Shown piece by piece: positions 3,149 through 46,932 of a DNA stretch of 64,000 nucleotides; the stretch's first letter is position 1; each line of letters begins with the position of its first letter. The DNA lies in assembly GCA_021792635.1 (NCBI GenBank), contig JAJYUH010000001.1:10515-74514 (forward strand), read 5' to 3'. This DNA comes from Natronospirales bacterium. Its GTDB lineage: Bacteria > Pseudomonadota > Gammaproteobacteria > Natronospirales > REEB76. Under the pieces are notes generated by a model. It did no database searches. It saw nothing but the letters and a program-made list of their open reading frames with translations, and was not told the origin of the DNA. The translations under genes and the position numbers were made by a program.

Positions 3149-4615
3149 ATGAAATATAAAGACCTGCGCGATTTTCTCTCCCAGCTTGAAGCCCGGGGCG
3201 AGCTGAAACGCATAGGCGTCGCCGTGGACCCACGTCTGGAGATGACTGAGATTTGCGACCGCACCCTCAAGCAGGGCGGACCGGCGCTGCTGTTTGAGAA
3301 CCCCAAAGGCCATGCGATCCCGGTGCTGGGCAACCTGTTCGGCACGCCGCGGCGCGTAGCACTGGGCATGGGCCGGGAATCGGTGGAAGCATTGCGCGAA
3401 GTGGGGCAACTGCTCGCCACGTTGCGGGAGCCGGAGCCGCCGCAAGGCCTGAAGGATGCCTGGGAAAAACTGGGTGTATTCAGGCAGGTGTTCAGGATGC
3501 CGCCGAATAAGGTCGGCACGGCGGCTTGTCAGCAGAACCGTCTTGAAGGCGAAGAGGTGGATTTGAAAAAATTCCCCATCCAGACCTGCTGGCCCGGCGA
3601 TGCGGGGCCGCTCATCACCTGGGGACTCACGGTCACCAGAGGAACACGCAAACCGCGGCAGAATCTCGGCATCTACCGCCAGCAGCTGATCGGCAGGAAC
3701 AAACTCATCATGCGCTGGCTGGCGCACCGCGGCGGTGCCCTGGATTTCAGGGATTGGCAGGAAGCGCATCCCGGTGAACCGTTTCCCGTGGCGGTGGCGC
3801 TGGGTGCCGATCCCGCCACCATCCTGGGCGCGGTCACACCGGTGCCGGATAATCTTTCCGAATATTCCTTCGCGGGATTGCTGCGCGGTGCACGCACCGA
3901 AGTGGTGAAATGCATATCCAATGACCTGATGGTGCCCGCCAGCGCCGAGATCGTGCTGGAAGGCCACATCCTGCCCGGTGAGACGGCAGCGGAAGGTCCG
4001 TTCGGCGACCACACCGGCTATTACAACGAAGTGGAAAGCTTCCCGGTGTTCACCGTCACCCGCATCACCCACCGGGACGATCCGATCTATCACTCCACCT
4101 ACACCGGCCGGCCGCCGGACGAACCCGCGGTGCTGGGCGTGGCGCTCAACGAAGTGTTCGTGCCCATCCTGCAGAAACAGTTTCCGGAGATCACGGATTT
4201 CTACCTGCCGCCGGAGGGCTGCTCCTACCGCATCGCCTGCGTGAGCATGAAGAAACAGTATCCGGGTCACGCCAAGCGCGTGATGTTCGGCATCTGGAGT
4301 TTTCTGCGCCAGTTCATGTACACCAAGTTCATCATCGTCACCGACGACGACGTGAACGTGCGTGACTGGAAGGACGTGATCTGGGCGGTGACCACGCGCA
4401 TGGATGCGGCGCGCGACTGCACCATCGTCGAGAACACGCCCATTGATTATCTGGACTTCGCCTCGCCGGTTTCGGGTCTGGGCTCCAAGATCGGCTTCGA
4501 TGCCACCAATAAATGGCCGGGTGAAACCCGGCGCCAATGGGGCCGGCCCATTGCCATGAGCGATGAGGTGAAGCGGCGCGTGGATGCACTGTGGGGATCA
4601 CTGGGGTTAAGGTAG
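3149..4615 (+). CDS. ubiD: 4-hydroxy-3-polyprenylbenzoate decarboxylase
   Basis: [10 protein letters not shown] start, [11 protein letters not shown] and [14 protein letters not shown] motifs. Ends in TAG. Confidence 0.97.
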
Positions 4616-5685: not shown

Positions 5686-6327
5686 ATGCGCACGATCATG
5701 GTGATAAATGCCAAGGGTGGCTGCGGCAAATCCACGCTGGCCACCAACATTGCGGGCTATTTCGCCAGCAACTGGGACGCGGTGGTGAGTCTCGCGGACT
5801 TTGATCCGCAGGGCTCCAGCCTGGACTGGCTCGCGAAGCGGCCGCCCGAGCGCGACAAGATCCACGCTGTGGATGCGCACAATGAGGGTCTGCGGCATCT
5901 GGATCGCAACAGCGATTTCCTCATCGTGGATTCGCCCGCCCGCTCCCATGGTTCCGAGCTCACGCAGATGGTGCGTCATGCCGAGACCGTCGTGGTGCCG
6001 GTGCTGCCGTCGCCCATTGATATCAACGCCGCCGGCAAATTCGTGCAGGAACTGCTGGACGTGGGCAAGGTGGAACGCAAGGAGGTGAAAGTGGCGGTGG
6101 TGGCCAACCGCGTGCGCGAGAACCTGCTGATTTACGCCGAGCTGGAAAAATTCCTCGACACTCTCAAGGTGCCGGTAATCGCACGGCTGCGCGACACCCA
6201 GAACTACATCCGTGCGTATTCACGCGGACTCGGCATCCACGAATTGCCGGAATACCTCTCTTGGCCGGATCAGGAGCAGTGGGAGCCGCTGGTGAAATGG
6301 CTGGAATCGAAACGCAGCCAGCCATGA
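5686..6327 (+). CDS. ParA/MinD-family ATPase (orphan, no ParB nearby)
   Basis: Deviant Walker A KGGCGKST, DFDPQGS, IVDSP and PVLPSPID motifs. Confidence 0.9.
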   Translation: MRTIMVINAKGGCGKSTLATNIAGYFASNWDAVVSLADFDPQGSSLDWLAKRPPERDKIHAVDAHNEGLRHLDRNSDFLIVDSPARSHGSELTQMVRHAETVVVPVLPSPIDINAAGKFVQELLDVGKVERKEVKVAVVANRVRENLLIYAELEKFLDTLKVPVIARLRDTQNYIRAYSRGLGIHELPEYLSWPDQEQWEPLVKWLESKRSQP

Positions 6328-25554: not shown

Positions 25555-26711
25555 TGCGCTTATCTCCCGACAGAGCGCGGGCACCCCGGCTGGTGTTCCT
25601 GCTGGCGGCGGCAATCCTGGCGCCGGTGCTCCCGGGCACCAGGAACGCCGCAGCGGATCCCCTGACGCTGCCCCCGCCGCTGCTATTCGACGCCGGTCCG
25701 CTGGGATCGTTGCAGGCGCAGGGGATCTTCAGCGGCCTGGGCACCTGGCAGTACAATCCCACGGCTCTCGATGCAAGTAACCGCTTCGACATCACCAATG
25801 CTCAACTCATCCTGCAAAAGAACACCGGCCCGGTTCAGTTTTTTCTGCAAGCCGGGGCCTACAATTTCCCGACCTTGGGAGTTCCTGCCTCACCCACATC
25901 GGACATCGGGAAAAATTTCTACGGCCCCGTGCCGGAAGCTTACGTAAAATTTGCACCGGCAGGTGATTTCTCCATCGAGATTGGCAAACTTCCCACTCTG
26001 ATGGGGGCCGAAACCACCTGGACATGGATGAATTACAATATCGAACGCGGCCTGCTCTGGAATCTCGAAAACGCCGTTACGCGCGGCGCGCAGTTAAATT
26101 ACGGAGCGGGTTCCTTCCATGCTTCTCTGGCATGGACCGATGGATATTATTCCAACCGTTACAATACGGTAAGCGGATCCCTGGCTTATGCCCCGGACAC
26201 CGAAAATACGCTTAGTGTATTTTTTTATGACAACTTGGGACATACGCCTTATGGTTCAACCGCCAATCCGGAAGCCTTGAATAACAGCCGGACCTATAAT
26301 CTGATTTACACCTACAGTTCTGCGTCCTGGATAGTTTCGCCCTATCTGCAATACATTGTTTCCCCTGCATCCACGCAACTGGGGTACGCCCATGCGAATG
26401 ATTCGTTCGGTGCGGCCGTGCTGGCTGATTACAGCTTCACCAGGACTTTCAGCCTGGGAGCACGCTTCGAATACATCACCAGCTCCGGCGCGGACAACGT
26501 CAGCGCCAACAACAACCTGTTTGGCTACGGCCCCGGCAGCCGCGCCTGGACATTTACGCTGACGCCCACGTGGCAGGCAGGCGGGCTGTTTGCGCGTGCC
26601 GAGATCTCGTATGTGCGGGTCACTCACTATGCGTCGGGGATGGTATTCGGCCCCGCCGGCAACAACCGCGATCAGATACGCGCACTGGTTGAAACCGGAG
26701 TTATGTTCTAA
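25554..26711 (+). CDS. Outer-membrane beta-barrel (porin-like) protein inside the kdp operon
   Basis: Signal peptide, amphipathic beta-strands, IGKLPTLMGAE and terminal ETGVMF. The start overlaps the kdpC stop. Confidence 0.8.
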   Translation: MRLSPDRARAPRLVFLLAAAILAPVLPGTRNAAADPLTLPPPLLFDAGPLGSLQAQGIFSGLGTWQYNPTALDASNRFDITNAQLILQKNTGPVQFFLQAGAYNFPTLGVPASPTSDIGKNFYGPVPEAYVKFAPAGDFSIEIGKLPTLMGAETTWTWMNYNIERGLLWNLENAVTRGAQLNYGAGSFHASLAWTDGYYSNRYNTVSGSLAYAPDTENTLSVFFYDNLGHTPYGSTANPEALNNSRTYNLIYTYSSASWIVSPYLQYIVSPASTQLGYAHANDSFGAAVLADYSFTRTFSLGARFEYITSSGADNVSANNNLFGYGPGSRAWTFTLTPTWQAGGLFARAEISYVRVTHYASGMVFGPAGNNRDQIRALVETGVMF

Positions 26712-42012: not shown

Positions 42013-43359
42013 ATGAAACGCTGTCTTTGCCTGTTTTTCGCCTTGTTACCGGCCACCGTCTGGGCACAGTTTGCCGCGGTTCCGCCCCAGGAGCATCCGC
42101 TGCTGCGGGAGATCGCCAGCGCAATCCATGCCGATGAACTGCGTGCCATTGACACGCGTCTGGTGGGTTTCGGAACGCGCCACACGTTGTCCATCACCAC
42201 TTCGCCGACCCGTGGCATCGGTGCCGCGCGCCGCTGGGTGAAAGCGCAGTTTCAGGAGATCTCCCGCGGCTGCGGCGGTTGTCTCGAGGTGATTACGCCG
42301 TCCCAAGTGGTCACCGGCCCGGGAATCCCCAAACCCACGGAAGTCATGGATGTGGTGGCTATCCAGAAGGGTGCGACCGATCCCAGTCGTTATATCGTCA
42401 TGACCGCGCACCTGGATTCGCGGGTGGCGAACATCATGGATTCCACTTCCAATGCCCCCGGCGCCGATGACGACGGTTCCGGAGTTACCGCCATCCTTGA
42501 GACCGCGCGGGTGCTGTCCAAGTACAAATTCAATGCCACCATCGTGTACTCCGCCGATTCCGGCGAGGAGCAGGGGCTGTACGGCGGCAAGATTATCGCC
42601 CGGTACGCGAAAGCCCACGGCTGGAATGTGGAAGCCGACATCAACAACGACATGATCGGCAACAGCCAGGGTTCCGACGGCGTGGTGGACAATATCCGGG
42701 TACGGGTGTTTTCCGAAGGTATCAGCCCCAACGTCACGCCCGCGGAAATCAAGTATCTGTACTACCACGGCGGCGAGGTGGACTCGCCCGCGCGCCAGGT
42801 GGCGCGTTACATGGCAGTGTTGTGCCAGCAGTACGTGCCGAATCTGAAGGTCATGCTCATGTACCGCGACGACCGCTTCGGTCGCGGCGGCGACCAGATG
42901 GAGTTCGATGCGCTGGGGTATCCGGCAGTGCGTGTTACCGAGGCCCACGAGAACTTCACCCGCCAGCACAACGATGTGAAGATGATTGACGGCGTGCAGC
43001 ACGGCGACCTGCTCGCAGGCGTGGATTTCACCTACGCGCGCAAGATCACCGCGTTGGACGCCATCACACTCGCCTCCCTCGCCTGGGCACCGGCGCCGCC
43101 CTCGGGGGTGGGGATCGCGGGCGCAGTCACGCCCGATACCACGGTAAGCTGGAAACCAGTCGCGGGTGCGACCGGCTACCGCGTGTACTGGCGCGACACC
43201 ACTGCGCCGCTCTGGACCCATTCCGAATACGTAGGCGATGTCACCCGGCATGAGCTTCGGGACACCAGCATAGACAATTATTTCTTCGGCGTGGCGAGTG
43301 TCTCGAAGGACGGTTTTGAGTCACCGGTGGTATTTCCGGGTCCGACGGGCGCATTCTGA
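42013..43359 (+). CDS. Exported M28-family metallopeptidase
   Basis: AHLDS, GADDDGSG, GEEQGLYG and NNDMIG motifs; C-terminal FnIII-like domain. Confidence 0.92.
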   Translation: MKRCLCLFFALLPATVWAQFAAVPPQEHPLLREIASAIHADELRAIDTRLVGFGTRHTLSITTSPTRGIGAARRWVKAQFQEISRGCGGCLEVITPSQVVTGPGIPKPTEVMDVVAIQKGATDPSRYIVMTAHLDSRVANIMDSTSNAPGADDDGSGVTAILETARVLSKYKFNATIVYSADSGEEQGLYGGKIIARYAKAHGWNVEADINNDMIGNSQGSDGVVDNIRVRVFSEGISPNVTPAEIKYLYYHGGEVDSPARQVARYMAVLCQQYVPNLKVMLMYRDDRFGRGGDQMEFDALGYPAVRVTEAHENFTRQHNDVKMIDGVQHGDLLAGVDFTYARKITALDAITLASLAWAPAPPSGVGIAGAVTPDTTVSWKPVAGATGYRVYWRDTTAPLWTHSEYVGDVTRHELRDTSIDNYFFGVASVSKDGFESPVVFPGPTGAF

Positions 43360-43409
43360 GGAGCGAACACACCCTCGACGGCGCAGTAGCGCCCGCCGAG
43401 GAGACTGGG

Positions 43410-43808
43410 TTACATGGCCTGCAACAGGGCGATGGCGATGAGCAGTTCCCCCACCACGCCAACGGTGAAGGCGAGGGTGCGCAGTCCGGGAATGCCGAGG
43501 GTGTAGATGATGTAATGGGCAAGCCGCGCCCAGAAGTACAGTGCACAGCCCAGTACCGTGAGGTGATTGTTCACGCCGGCAAACTGCGCGGCGGCCACCA
43601 GCGCGGCGAATACCACCAGGTTTTCCACCGCATTGGCGTGCGCTCGTTGTGCGCGTTGTGCCCACTCATGTTGCGGTTTGTCGGCAGGGTTCGGGTTCGC
43701 CAGGGTGCCCATAAGGCCGCGCACCGTCATGCGATCGAGCACGTACGGGACAAAGAACAATCCCGTCATCATGGCGGTGATCGCGAGCCAGAAGACTTCA
43801 GGTTTCAT
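43410..43808 (-). CDS. MAPEG family protein
   Basis: RAQRAHANAVENL..F and RLAHYIIY motifs. Confidence 0.9.
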   Translation of the reverse strand: MKPEVFWLAITAMMTGLFFVPYVLDRMTVRGLMGTLANPNPADKPQHEWAQRAQRAHANAVENLVVFAALVAAAQFAGVNNHLTVLGCALYFWARLAHYIIYTLGIPGLRTLAFTVGVVGELLIAIALLQAM

Positions 43809-44038
43809 TTGATTTCTCCCTCAATGTGGGTGAGCCGGGGTGTCAAAGCCCCGGACAGGGCAGATTATCCGCCAGTCCATCCACAGTTGGAGTGATTTCA
43901 GTACAAAATGAAAGAACAAACCGGGTTGCAGCCCTAGGCGTTCCGTTAAAGTGTTGATAGTGTAAATATCCTGCACACAAGTGAAACGCCCGATACACTT
44001 TCGGTTACCGGGCGTTGTGTTGCTGTAAAACGGGCTGT

Positions 44039-44809
44039 CTATGAGGTAGGGTTGTGTTGTATGGCAGCTGAGGTCCTCGGAGCGCGCCGTTTCTCAACCT
44101 GCTCACGGATCTGGGGAAGCCTGGTTTTGGTGAATTCCTCCGGCCAGGCCGCGTGTTTTGGGATAGAGGCAAGTAGATCGAGCTTGTCACGACGCCAAGC
44201 TGCCACTCCGGCAGTGCAGGTGGCGAGGGCGGCTATGAACTCGGCGGCATTCAGCGCGGCACGAGTTTTACCCGAATTGAGCAGCTCCATGACCATGGCC
44301 GCGGCCACTTTCGACGCGACGGCCACCCGGTCCCGGTAGTATTCGCCGCCAGCTCCATCCCGACGGCACAGGGTCTCCCCATAGGTGTTTTCGAGTGCAG
44401 AGACGAGAACGTGCAGCGGGTGCATGACTCTGAAACTGTGCTCGCCGACGTCGATTTTGACCGCCCATTTATCGAGCTTTTCACTCTCGATGCCCAAGAC
44501 ACTAGTGAGGAAATCAATTGTGTGGGATTCTCCCTCGATCTGGACGACGACGGTGGCGGCGTTTGGAGTGTGGTCATCAAGCCCTGCGACACGGGTTTGG
44601 CCATGCCACGCGAGGCCAGCGGCAATGGCATCGGCCTTGTTGCCAATGAAATCGATGTCGACGCTGACCGCGGCGGTGACCTTCTTCAGGCGGTAGTGGA
44701 CCGCCCAGGCGTTCAAGGCTTGCCCCCCGACAAGGATTGCATCTTTGGTTCGAGGTGATGCCGCGAGGAGGTCCACCACCTCTGCGAGCGACAAAGACTT
44801 TGGGCTCAT
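44039..44809 (-). CDS. Putative nucleotidyltransferase-fold protein (toxin candidate)
   Basis: LVGGQAL...SVDIDF resembles the hG[GS]...DxD Pol-beta motif, with a third Asp in IDFL. ATGA-coupled to the upstream HTH gene. Confidence 0.6.
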   Translation of the reverse strand: MSPKSLSLAEVVDLLAASPRTKDAILVGGQALNAWAVHYRLKKVTAAVSVDIDFIGNKADAIAAGLAWHGQTRVAGLDDHTPNAATVVVQIEGESHTIDFLTSVLGIESEKLDKWAVKIDVGEHSFRVMHPLHVLVSALENTYGETLCRRDGAGGEYYRDRVAVASKVAAAMVMELLNSGKTRAALNAAEFIAALATCTAGVAAWRRDKLDLLASIPKHAAWPEEFTKTRLPQIREQVEKRRAPRTSAAIQHNPTS

Positions 44810-45246
44810 GCCGGGACATCGACCTGATTAAAGTGGGCACCCTCAATTCGCAAGGCGTTCTCCACGTCATGGCGTTCCAAGGACTTCCGGCCGCGAACGA
44901 CCTCGCCAAGTGCGCGCCGGCGCCGGCGACCTTCCTCGCGAGCCAACGATTGGCTGGATACCAGGGCAACGCTCGGCGCGTCCGCGGAGACAAGGGCAAC
45001 ACGCAGACCTGCAGCGGCGGCGAGCTTTTCGATGGACTGCAGGGACGGGTTGCCCCGGCCGGATTCGATGTCCTTGATGACGTTTAACGCGACGTTCAGC
45101 GAGTCGGCGAATTCCGACTGCGACAGCCCGTTTTCGGCCCGAACCAGGCGAGAGACATCACCGATGGCCAGGGCGCCTTGCTGCATAGCGCGACGCAGCT
45201 CGGCGAGCAAATCTTGGTCGTAGATACGTTGTAGGCGACGCGGCAT
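44806..45246 (-). CDS. XRE-family HTH regulator (antitoxin candidate)
   Basis: GLSQSEFADSL..IKDIESGRGNPSLQSIEKL HTH_3 pattern; GGAG RBS. Confidence 0.85.
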   Translation of the reverse strand: MPRRLQRIYDQDLLAELRRAMQQGALAIGDVSRLVRAENGLSQSEFADSLNVALNVIKDIESGRGNPSLQSIEKLAAAAGLRVALVSADAPSVALVSSQSLAREEGRRRRRALGEVVRGRKSLERHDVENALRIEGAHFNQVDVPA

Positions 45247-45274
45247 ACGGGGCTCCAAGAGTTGCTTACGCTTT

Positions 45275-45302
45275 ATTATAGTCCTTATAAGGGCTTTAAC
45301 AA
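45275..45302 (-). promoter_or_regulatory. Sigma70 promoter with an internal palindromic operator
   Basis: TTGTTA-N16-TATAAT, with the perfect palindrome CCTTATAAGG (45283-45292) in the spacer. Confidence 0.65.
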
Positions 45303-45380
45303 GGCAAGACACGCTTGTCCACTGCGGGCGCTATATTTTTAACACTTTTTAACGGAACGGCTGGGGTTGCAGCCGGGCCG

Positions 45381-46932
45381 CTAGTGCAACAGGCCGAACA
45401 CCGCCACGCCATCCGTTGTTCCCACGAAGACTTTGCCGTTGGCGACGTTGGGGGTGATGAATTTGTTGCCCGGGCCGAACCGGTTGCGGCTGCCGGCCTG
45501 GTTGCTGTCGTAGAGTTCGTGGGCGAGATTGCCGGCGTCATAGGCATACAGCACCGCCGGGTTGCTGTTGTCCACGGCCCAGAGGATGGCGTTGCGGCTG
45601 CCGTCGGCAGAGATGCTGGGTGTGGCACCCGGATAGGGGAATCGGTTGGTGGTTTCCGACACCGGTGTGGCTGAGAGTTTCGCCTGGCGGATGCTGAAAG
45701 CGCGGATCACGTCGCCTGCGGCGCCGTAGTACAGCGTGCCGCTGAAGTAGGCCGGCATACCGAATTCCGGACCACCGAAGCCTTGGGGCAGTTCCTGCCA
45801 GATGTGGTTGGCAGTGGGGCTGAGTTTTCCCATGTTGTCCCGGTTCACCACATAGATATTCCGGTCCTTGCCGGAACCGAAATCCTCGTCGGCACTGGAT
45901 TCCGCCACGGTGAGCCTATGGTTGGCGGTCGAAATTTTGAGGAACACATTGCCGTAGTCATGGTGGATGGGGAAGCCGTTGGCATCGAGCGTGGTAGCAA
46001 AAATGCCGTTACCGGCGAGAAAATAAATGTTGCCGCCGCTGTCGGCTGCCGGGCCGGCGCCCGAGGCCCAGATGGAACCTTCGCTGCCGTTGGGCGTGAT
46101 GTCGAGCACCCGGCTGCGGGTGAGCGTGGATTCGTTGTAGCCGATGATCCAGCCGGTGTAAGGCCGGTAGTCGCAGTGCGAGGACCAGAAGGTATAGACC
46201 ACGCCGTTGAGCAGCAGCAGTCCGGGCCGTTCCTTAGTACTGCGCCGGGGCGAAGGTCACCCGGCCCTTGACGCTGTTGTCGCCCGTGTCGGGATAGCTC
46301 GCCCGTACCGTCACCGGACTGCCCGGCCGCTCGGCACCGGTGGCGAGATCGAGCGCGTGCAGGCGCTGGTAATAACCGCCGGTGCCGTCTTTGGACATGG
46401 CCACTACGAAGAGCGTGCCGTGAGGGCCGGCGGCGGGATCAATCACCGGCGTGGCGGTGACGCCGATTTCCGGCGTCACCTGGCCGCAGCCGCGATCGTC
46501 GCTCGGGGTTTCGCCCGCGCCGAGCGGCGACACCCGCCACAGCACCGCGCCCGAGTCTGCGTTGAAGGCGTACACGCTGTCGTGTTCGGTGGCAACATAC
46601 AGCATGTTGCGGGTTGTGCCGTTGATGCCGAGCGCCGAAACGTACAGCGGCTGGGCGTCCACCTTGCCGTCCACTGGAAAAAAATTGATCCGGCCGAAAT
46701 CAGCGGAGTTGACGTTGGCAGGCGTGAGCACCGTCTCCCTCAAGTTGGCGCCAGTGCGGGCATTGTCGTTGTGGTAAGTGAGTACGTTGACGTTGCCCAG
46801 ACCCGGCGGCGGGGTGCTGCCGCCGGGAGGGCCGGGGGTGATGCTGTCGCCGCCTCCGCCGCAACCCGCGAGCAACAATGTGATACCTGCGACGAGCCCG
46901 CGCAGCGTTCTCTGGTACCTGTTTCCACCCAT
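45381..46932 (-). pseudogene. Decayed PQQ-like beta-propeller lipoprotein
   Basis: Lipobox LLAGC and TYHNDNARTGAN..VDGKVDAQPLY. One extra T near 46236 (CAGTACTAAGGAA, restorable to QYKERPGLLLLNG) splits the gene into ORFs 46234-46932 and 45381-46202. There are apparent internal deletions near ESSADEDFGSGKD. Confidence 0.8.

Follow-up and report, generated by a model that had tools for sequence, protein, structure and literature searches.

A transposase-less cassette carrying a candidate toxin–antitoxin operon between the ends of an uncurated transposon family in a Natronospirales bacterium

The 64000-nt stretch of Natronospirales bacterium DNA analysed here ('the window'; GenBank assembly GCA_021792635.1, contig JAJYUH010000001.1, positions 10515–74514) contains, between a MAPEG gene and a gene for a PQQ-like β-propeller protein, two overlapping genes framed by an imperfect inverted repeat, and this locus raises the question of whether such a segment can be a mobile element without a transposase of its own and, if so, what might move it and what it carries. 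An initial annotation of the window had proposed a non-autonomous element bounded by terminal inverted repeats (TIRs) and carrying a toxin–antitoxin or defence-like pair. This core proposal is supported by a second insertion site, by an empty site and by the presence of the same ends around a candidate transposase gene in other genomes, and we conclude that the segment from 43933/43934 to 45364 is very probably a genuine 1.43-kb non-autonomous transposable cassette of the mobile insertion cassette (MIC) type.

The boundaries of this element were defined by a repeat search, in which the inverted repeat arms at 43921–43950 and 45348–45377 match at 25 of 30 nt; after a 2-nt indel beyond these arms the similarity resumes (AAAGTGTT / AAAAAGTGTT), in agreement with the TIRs proposed initially. 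Considered alone, the repeat is modestly above chance, as three of 200 dinucleotide-preserving shuffles of 43500–45800 also reach 25/30, and we accept it as real because of the comparative data presented below and not because of its strength. The exact ends and the duplication, however, had to be revised. The initial annotation had set the ends at 43921 and 45377 and had taken CCGGG as a 5-bp target duplication; this pentanucleotide pair is indeed present, at 43921–43925 and 45373–45377, but it is not the product of insertion, because an independent copy of the cassette downstream of rplQ has CCGGG and CCAAG at the equivalent positions together with a perfect 10-nt repeat, GGGCATAGCC, and a 5-bp duplication was therefore rejected. 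The actual direct repeat in the window is GGTTGCAGC(C), 9–10 bp in length, located at 43924–43932(33) and, as an exact second copy, at 45365–45373(74), and the true ends, 43933/43934 and 45364, lie 8–13 nt further in than those first assigned. The best reading of the CCGGG pair is that it combines the edges of this duplication with both CCGG arms of a short palindrome at the target site. The bases at 43933 (C) and 45374 (C) are ambiguous, in that each could belong either to the duplication or to the tip of the element, which leaves a duplication length of 9 or 10 bp; among the related elements described below, those tipped with CAAG fit a 9-bp duplication and those tipped with CTAG fit 10 bp.

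The cassette TIR is 26 nt long, begins C(T/C)AG and has the form CTAGSCGTTCCGTTAAAGTGTTGA. The distal TIR, at the end away from the gene for a helix–turn–helix (HTH) protein, is CTAGGCGTTCCGTTAAAGTGTTGATA (43934–43959, plus strand); over the first 25 of its 26 nt it is identical with the corresponding end of the copy at rplQ, and its score of 31 bits on a weight matrix of the TIR is the best in the window. The HTH-side TIR, CCAGCCGTTCCGTTAAAAAGTGTTAAAA (45337–45364, minus strand), carries an insertion of 2 nt compared with the family consensus and scores 13.6 bits; its homologue in contig L134 reads CTAGCCGTTCCGTTAAAGTGTTGAAA. A third site in the window, CAAGGCTTCCGGATTGGCGGTTGAAC at 26254–26279 (minus strand), scores 14.7 bits, just over the HTH-side end; it could be a degenerate family end standing alone or simply a match by chance.

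Evidence for movement came from a second copy at an unrelated locus. A protein homology search with the 256-aa protein encoded in the cassette identified a 90%-identical protein on an ENA contig (L003), in which the same gene pair adjoins rplQ-rpoA-rpsD and not the MAPEG and PQQ-like genes, the cassette lying downstream of rplQ; this contig matches the window up to ...AACGGAACGCCTAGGGCT and diverges thereafter. In addition, a metagenome scan with a 22-base TIR pattern yielded three JGI contigs, two with the distal end beside rplQ (L132 and L133) and one with the HTH-side end (L134), the distal end at the rplQ locus being represented by L003, L148, L150 and L132. Homology between the window and the rplQ-locus contigs, as determined by blastn, is confined to 43930–45366 at 87–90% nucleotide identity. 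The exact direct repeats that flank the two copies are not the same, GGTTGCAGC(C) bracketing the window copy and GGGCATAGC(C) the rplQ copy, so that the target-site duplication differs between the insertion sites, as expected of MIC-type insertions.

The rplQ site also occurs empty. In contig L151, from a close relative found via the L17 protein of L003 (93% L17 identity), GCCGGGTTACGCCCGGC-TTTTTTT, an intact terminator hairpin, comes directly after rplQ, and a convergent CitMHS transporter gene lies beyond it. The order in the filled genome is rplQ, ...AAAAGCC GGGCATAGC(C), the cassette, GGGCATAGC(C), a 3.6-kb element, GGGCATAGC CCGGCTTTTT and CitMHS, and removal of both elements and of two of the three repeat copies leaves the hairpin GCCGGGC-ATA-GCCCGGC, which aligns with the L151 terminator. 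Three copies of GGGCATAGC are expected from two successive insertions into one site, and the cassette and the 3.6-kb element have used the same 9–10 bp of one rplQ terminator loop. For the MAPEG–PQQ locus, the corresponding empty junction can be reconstructed as ...AAACCGGGTTGCAGCCGGGCCGCTAG..., and the insertion is present in every contig recovered from the species of the window.

Wider searches for the cassette were also performed. We found no match to it among plasmids by blastn, a 16-base TIR pattern run over genome contigs gave 119 stretches that were all chance matches, and a 256-aa ORF (open reading frame) beside MAPEG in contig L140, considered as a possible relative, proved unrelated. 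At the rplQ locus, an IS110-family element with a DEDD transposase of approximately 340 aa (NCBIfam, 366 bits; L133 118–1137, L147 5109–6131 and L149 1464–2486) interrupts the 256-aa gene of the cassette in several JGI metagenomes; the L003 copy is intact.

The initial annotation had suggested a search for autonomous elements with the same ends, and such elements exist. The 3.6-kb element that shares the rplQ terminator target (L134 173–3780) codes for a 589-aa protein, a 201-aa protein and an N6/N4 DNA methylase, of which the latter two are probably a type II restriction–modification (R-M) cargo; its TIR begins CAAGSCGTTCGA... and its 26-nt inverted repeats, CCAAGGCGTTCGACAAAGGGGTTGCA, have 88% complementarity. 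A tblastn search of plasmids with the 589-aa protein, a candidate transposase, gave 134 records. The simplest of the elements is an insertion sequence (IS) of 2010 bp in a Pseudomonas aeruginosa plasmid (CP136985.1; L153), in which the candidate transposase is the sole gene, with perfect TIRs, CAAGCCGTTCGCTTAAGGTGTTGAAA, and a 9-bp duplication, CCTGTATCG; this IS had no match in Escherichia coli genomes and is found in a single record of the plasmid collection. A 5.4-kb transposon in T. lovleyi pIAE1 (L156) combines the candidate transposase with a large N6 methylase between TIRs CTAGCCATTTCGCAAAGGTGTTGAAA and a direct repeat CGCCAATAGC. A 3.3-kb element in a Staphylococcus aureus plasmid (NZ_CP116910.1; L157 1832–5107) has 49-nt inverted repeats and a 10-bp duplication, ACTTTGTCTG, and contains a 78-aa ORF upstream of a 650-aa 'insertion element protein' as well as the trimethoprim-resistance gene dfrG. 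Further members are a Pontibacillus element with the duplication AGGGGCCCT (L158), a 6.1-kb element in Acidovorax temperans pEP1 (L155 5887–11968) that lies between the terminator halves AAAAAAGGGA...TCCCTTTTTT, and a member represented by the TIR of its left end only (L154).

The cassette ends are identical with the TIRs of the P. aeruginosa and T. lovleyi elements at 21–22 of 26 positions (alignment A4), and 14 aligned family ends, of 26 nt and of the form C(A/T)AGSCGTTC..AAGGTGTTGAAA, gave the consensus CAAGCCGTTCnGTTAAGGTGTTGAAAAT. The same repeats thus flank a candidate transposase gene alone, in the IS, or with other cargo, in the R-M, N6 methylase and dfrG elements, which is the behaviour that the initial annotation had anticipated of the ends of a mobile element. 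A scan of viral contigs with the family TIR pattern gave nothing. The partner family is not Tn3- or Tn7-like, but is an uncurated family whose N-terminal region suggests an IS1-like zinc ribbon; our literature searches returned no description of this transposon family or of the terminator targeting considered below, and it is either undescribed or at least uncurated.

Autonomous family members encode a single protein of 590–650 aa with a putative IS1/IS1595-like zinc ribbon and HTH at its N-terminus. Against the NCBIfam IS1 model NF033558 the candidate transposase scores 26–39 bits, where the cut-off is 100, and only over the first ~100 profile positions; all the family proteins give sub-threshold matches to IS1/IS1595 zinc-binding-domain, HTH and Zn_ribbon_InsA models and to nothing else, and NCBIfam models of other IS families match marginally at most, in the zinc-binding region. 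An alignment of the family proteins revealed invariant cysteines and acidic residues, and the invariant C112, C140 and C143 lie in the region of the weak zinc-binding-domain matches, while D224, D380 and E522 are candidate residues for an RNase-H-like DDE core. NCBI annotates the proteins as 'hypothetical' or 'insertion element protein'. Because it is the sole gene product of a simple IS, is encoded by the only gene common to all of the TIR-bounded elements and is annotated as 'insertion element protein' in Gram-positive plasmids, we infer that this protein is the transposase.

To examine the choice of target, we restored the original sites by deleting each element together with one copy of its repeat. 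The targets obtained were AAAAAAGGCCCTGTA-TCGC-TACAGGGCCTTT for the P. aeruginosa IS, ACCCCGC-CAATA-GCGGGGTTTTT for the T. lovleyi transposon, AAAAAAGCAAAGGG-GCC-CCTTTGCTTTTTT for the Pontibacillus element and AAAAAGCCAATCC...GGGTTGGCTTTT for the S. aureus element, the last hairpin being judged by eye. The targets at rplQ (L13x contigs) and of the P. aeruginosa, T. lovleyi and Pontibacillus elements fold as strong terminator hairpins with T-runs, and in each of these, as well as in that of S. aureus, the duplication spans the apex; the A. temperans flanks and the L154 left flank resemble terminator halves. The window target is a palindrome of CCGG, a 7-nt loop and CCGG, followed by the T-rich TTTGTTCTTTCATTTTG, and lies just beyond the stop codon of the PQQ-like gene, the cassette having inserted 3 nt after the stop codon region. 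From the position of the duplication across the family targets, terminator-apex targeting appears to be a property of the family, and we state it for the family only; for the window target it is plausible.

We then considered the cargo of the cassette. Between the arms, the only long coherent frames are two minus-strand genes that overlap by 4 nt, and none of the cassette proteins matched a transposase, integrase or resolvase in Pfam, NCBIfam or PADLOC, which bears out the earlier description of two coupled genes and their promoter without such an enzyme. The upstream gene (44806–45249, minus strand) encodes a 147-aa XRE-type HTH protein (Pfam HTH_3, 2.9e-10), a candidate antitoxin and autorepressor that also gives sub-cut-off matches to NCBIfam HipB/Y4mF-type antitoxin HTH models. 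Its stop codon overlaps the start of the downstream gene (44039–44809, minus strand), the product of which is the 256-aa protein, a candidate toxin assigned to the nucleotidyltransferase fold by its predicted structure and aligned motifs. Upstream of the pair lies a σ70-like promoter (45302–45275, minus strand; −35 TTGTTA, 16-nt spacer, −10 TATAAT; 10 of 12 positions matching), overlapped by a palindrome (45270–45305, minus strand; palindrome I9 in the repeat search) that is a candidate operator. The palindrome is a perfect 32-mer in L003 (23–54), GTTATTATAGCCCTTATAAGGGCTATAATAAC, and degenerate in the window copy. The P. aeruginosa IS has a similar core (ATAGCC-TTAT..GGCTAT) immediately internal to its left TIR (L153 ~5885–5910).

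The 256-aa protein belongs to a large family, with 97 clusters in a word-indexed search and 2270 representative clusters (50% identity) at E ≤ 0.001 in a profile search. No Pfam, NCBIfam or PADLOC family matched the protein itself, its 45 relatives gave no convincing match to Pfam nucleotidyltransferase or toxin (AbiEii/DUF1814) families or to PADLOC, and a PDB sequence-profile search returned only spurious IgG-Fc matches. An alignment of 45 sequences shows an invariant L-V-G-G-Q (G28-G29), D51-x-D53-F and H130-P, with D99 nearly invariant, a pattern of L-V-G-G-Q, D-x-D and H that we take to be that of a Pol-β-type nucleotidyltransferase. The AlphaFold2 model (predicted local distance difference test, pLDDT, 91.4; predicted template modelling score, pTM, 0.88) has as its best matches among solved structures the Mycobacterium tuberculosis MenT1 toxin (8an4/8an5; E ~1e-3, probability 1.0, template modelling (TM) score 0.4–0.5), Mimivirus poly(A) polymerase and TM1012. 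With MenAT (MenT1/Rv0078A) and AbiE (AbiEii) systems the pair shares a two-gene operon, a downstream toxin gene, here a candidate one, and a GG...DxD...D fold; it differs from them in lacking sequence membership, in its XRE HTH partner, which is not of the MenA or AbiEi type, and in an extra C-terminal helical domain of the 256-aa protein.

In all loci examined, the nucleotidyltransferase gene has an HTH_3 gene ahead of it, the two overlapping or lying close together, and the neighbourhoods are unrelated (Lhr helicase and a TonB receptor, ArsC, the type VI secretion protein Hcp, or a Fic/MazE pair). The HTH protein in L125 is 42% identical with that of the window, and a 30%-identical nucleotidyltransferase homologue on a Stenotrophomonas plasmid has a small overlapping ORF upstream. 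In contigs L159–L164 a third overlapping gene with a PRiA4_ORF3 domain (3286–3849) follows the nucleotidyltransferase gene, and a Fic/MazE-like pair is adjacent. Taken together, the fold and the gene architecture support a provisional label of toxin–antitoxin for this pair and point towards a toxin–antitoxin or abortive-infection-like module.

The alternative that survives best concerns this cargo only, namely that the nucleotidyltransferase is a regulated modifying enzyme, acting on a small molecule, an antibiotic or a signal, under the control of an XRE repressor. Consistent with this are the failure of any toxin family to match by sequence, the type of the HTH partner, the weakness of the structural match to MenT1, and the fact that other nucleotidyltransferases score similarly to MenT1 in the fold comparison. 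However, the repressor gene lies upstream with a 4-nt overlap, the pair is strictly kept across very different neighbourhoods that include the Fic/MazE pair and a plasmid, no antibiotic nucleotidyltransferase occurs among the listed fold matches, and in part of the rplQ-locus population the IS110-family element has interrupted the nucleotidyltransferase gene and not the HTH gene. The overlapping genes, the conserved pairing and these IS110 insertions fit a toxin–antitoxin module without proving one, and we regard the modifying enzyme as the improbable, though still serious, reading of the two.

The cassette could also be a fossil, each copy being what is left of a full-length transposon after loss of the transposase gene at the site of insertion, in which case the transposase-less unit would never have moved as such. 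It is true that cargo lies beside the transposase gene in autonomous family members and that the window is without a partner transposase, but both copies of the cassette are transposase-less, they retain no gene remnant between the HTH-side TIR and the promoter, and they are collinear but for an indel of ~130 nt; with such identical architecture, two independent and identical deletions are unlikely, and we give this origin little credence. Still less probable is site-specific recombination, of the integrase/att or integron-cassette-like kind, with the direct repeats as crossover core. Direct repeats of 9–11 nt do flank the cassette, the longest exact one at the window junctions being the 11-nt GGGTTGCAGCC, and the targets are similar and partly palindromic (GGG..N..AGCC); however, neither copy has an integrase or attC-like site in it or beside it, the conserved ends are inverted and not direct, and these same ends bound elements whose sole gene encodes a putative zinc-ribbon protein with IS1-like features. 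As the repeat sequence differs by site and equals the local target, the 11-nt repeat was rejected as an att core. The least credible explanation, a chance or regulatory inverted repeat around a resident toxin–antitoxin locus with nothing mobile, has in its favour the weakness of the repeat on its own and an arrangement that is the same, in the same place, in every close relative, but is contradicted by the same 1.4 kb downstream of rplQ in another genome, where homology stops at the repeat tips and a different exact duplication is found, by the empty rplQ site in a relative and by the similarity of the repeats to the TIRs of elements that bear the candidate transposase.

Several observations nevertheless weigh against our reading of the segment as a mobile member of this family with a toxin–antitoxin cargo. 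The cassette itself is known from two insertion sites in two genomes. An empty site, which the initial annotation had proposed as a check, was found at rplQ in L151 but not at the MAPEG–PQQ locus, where every locus at 97% identity carries the insertion and synteny differs in the next relatives (84%). No homologue of the candidate transposase was found in the 64-kb window, nor was a third TIR copy counted there. The candidate transposase has no Pfam domain, Pfam and PDB sequence searches match its zinc finger only, and its assignment draws on genomic context and this N-terminal motif. With regard to the targets, that of the window was rejected as a strong hairpin, since this weak 4-bp palindrome folds no better than shuffles (z = −0.06), and the A. 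temperans element lacks a clean duplication (ATCTTCGGG compared with GCCCATGGG), which could reflect decay or recombination between two copies. With regard to the cargo, the Foldseek match to MenT1 is weak at the E value and TM scores given above, and no TIRs were found around the distant HTH–nucleotidyltransferase pairs (~50% identity), from which we take the cassette form to be confined to one lineage and to reflect a recent capture.

The family was also compared with known systems. Mobile insertion cassettes are exemplified by MIC231, from the Bacillus cereus group. Like MICs and other non-autonomous IS derivatives, the present element consists of TIR-bounded passengers without a transposase, with a target-site duplication and with ends homologous to those of autonomous elements, because of which mobilization in trans would be expected. 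It differs from MICs in that its donor family is neither IS231/IS4 nor Tn3 and in that its passenger is a whole toxin–antitoxin-like operon. The IS1 family, in which a 9-bp duplication is typical and the terminus motif is GG..TG, has sub-threshold zinc-ribbon and HTH profile matches in the N-terminal region of the family proteins described here, and the 9–10-bp duplication is compatible with it; however, the candidate transposase is about three times longer and is encoded by a single ORF, its scores fall far below the IS1 cut-off, the termini are C(A/T)AG, and members carry cargo and would target terminator hairpins. Tn3-family elements produce a 5-bp duplication and have TIRs of ~38 bp starting GGGG and a TnpA of about 1000 aa; these are not matched by a duplication of 9–10 bp, a 26-nt TIR starting C(T/A)AG and a partner of 590–650 aa without a Tn3 transposase match. 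An integron gene cassette is not matched either, as the element has two separated inverted ends and a target duplication but no single attC and no integrase nearby.

One of the closest known systems is that of the dfrG-linked 'insertion element protein' Q4H3Y2, which belongs to the same protein family as the candidate transposase (24% identity over 96% of the length) and whose element has homologous TIRs, a 10-bp duplication, a terminator-hairpin target and dfrG as cargo. It differs from the cassette in being autonomous (the protein plus the 78-aa upstream ORF), in its Gram-positive hosts (staphylococci and enterococci) and in a TIR of up to 49 nt. The part of PMC8638950 available to us describes Q4H3Y2 as seemingly always linked to dfrG, and deals there with the linkage and not with the ends or the target. 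Passenger-bearing elements are described, in PMC4337579 and PMC4133298, as MICs in Xanthomonas and as Tn3-derived inverted-repeat miniature elements (TIMEs). Toxin–antitoxin pairs appear in PMC7157771 as integral passengers of Tn3-family transposons; those carriers differ from the cassette, which has neither the transposase nor the resolvase present in them.

The genomic setting of the cassette includes the MAPEG gene at 43410–43808 (minus strand) on one side and the PQQ-like gene on the other, with its stop codon at 45381–45383. The latter gene, for a β-propeller lipoprotein, is split into two frames, 45381–46202 and 46234–46932 (both minus strand), and its calls are fragmentary too in the near-identical contigs L001 (218 aa) and L002 (125 aa), which would point either to a pseudogene with a frameshift or to an assembly error common to these sequences. 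Downstream of the 256-aa gene, reading and folding of the sequence identified a terminator-like hairpin (43985–44016, minus strand) of AACGCCCG, a 16-nt loop, CGGGCGTT and a U-rich stretch, with z = −1.7 (15 of 200 shuffles fold equally well or better); it is kept in L003 and L132 even though the ~130-nt indel adjoins it. An Rfam search of 43300–46000 gave no match.

On the basis of these findings, we propose that the candidate transposase, supplied in trans, would bind the cassette TIRs and make cuts staggered by 9–10 bp at the apex of a GC-rich palindrome; in the family members with a clear target, this palindrome would correspond to the hairpin of an intrinsic terminator shortly after a gene. 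The window copy would have landed near the stop codon of the PQQ-like gene and duplicated GGTTGCAGC(C). Its cargo would be expressed as an operon from the σ70-like promoter under the palindromic operator, with the XRE-HTH protein as probable autorepressor and antitoxin, neutralizing a translationally coupled nucleotidyltransferase with intact catalytic carboxylates that is probably a MenT/AbiEii-like toxin, and would close with its own terminator hairpin. The likely role of such a pair would be addiction or an abortive-infection-type defence that moves with the cassette. More tentatively, and with rather less than even confidence, we suggest that the cassette is the first recognized non-autonomous derivative of an undescribed terminator-targeting transposon family with a ~600-aa transposase, an IS1-like zinc ribbon and a 9–10-bp duplication, which moves defence, toxin–antitoxin, R-M and dfrG cargo among both Gram-negative and Gram-positive hosts.

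That genes can spread on cassettes lacking a transposase is known but has seldom been documented; for the example in this window, both ends and the duplication are defined, and a second site as well as an empty one have been identified. The cassette also links a toxin–antitoxin-like operon from an unannotated nucleotidyltransferase family with a transposon family for which terminator hairpins appear to be the landing sites of choice and which includes the dfrG-linked element. If true, these proposals would provide a rule by which family insertions and their cargo could be located in genomes, would offer a case in which target choice directed by structure or by a palindrome can be tested, and would add a new candidate to the nucleotidyltransferase toxins. 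Most of the interest lies in the transposon family and in its apparent preference for terminator hairpins, which would offer a 'safe' site just after genes.

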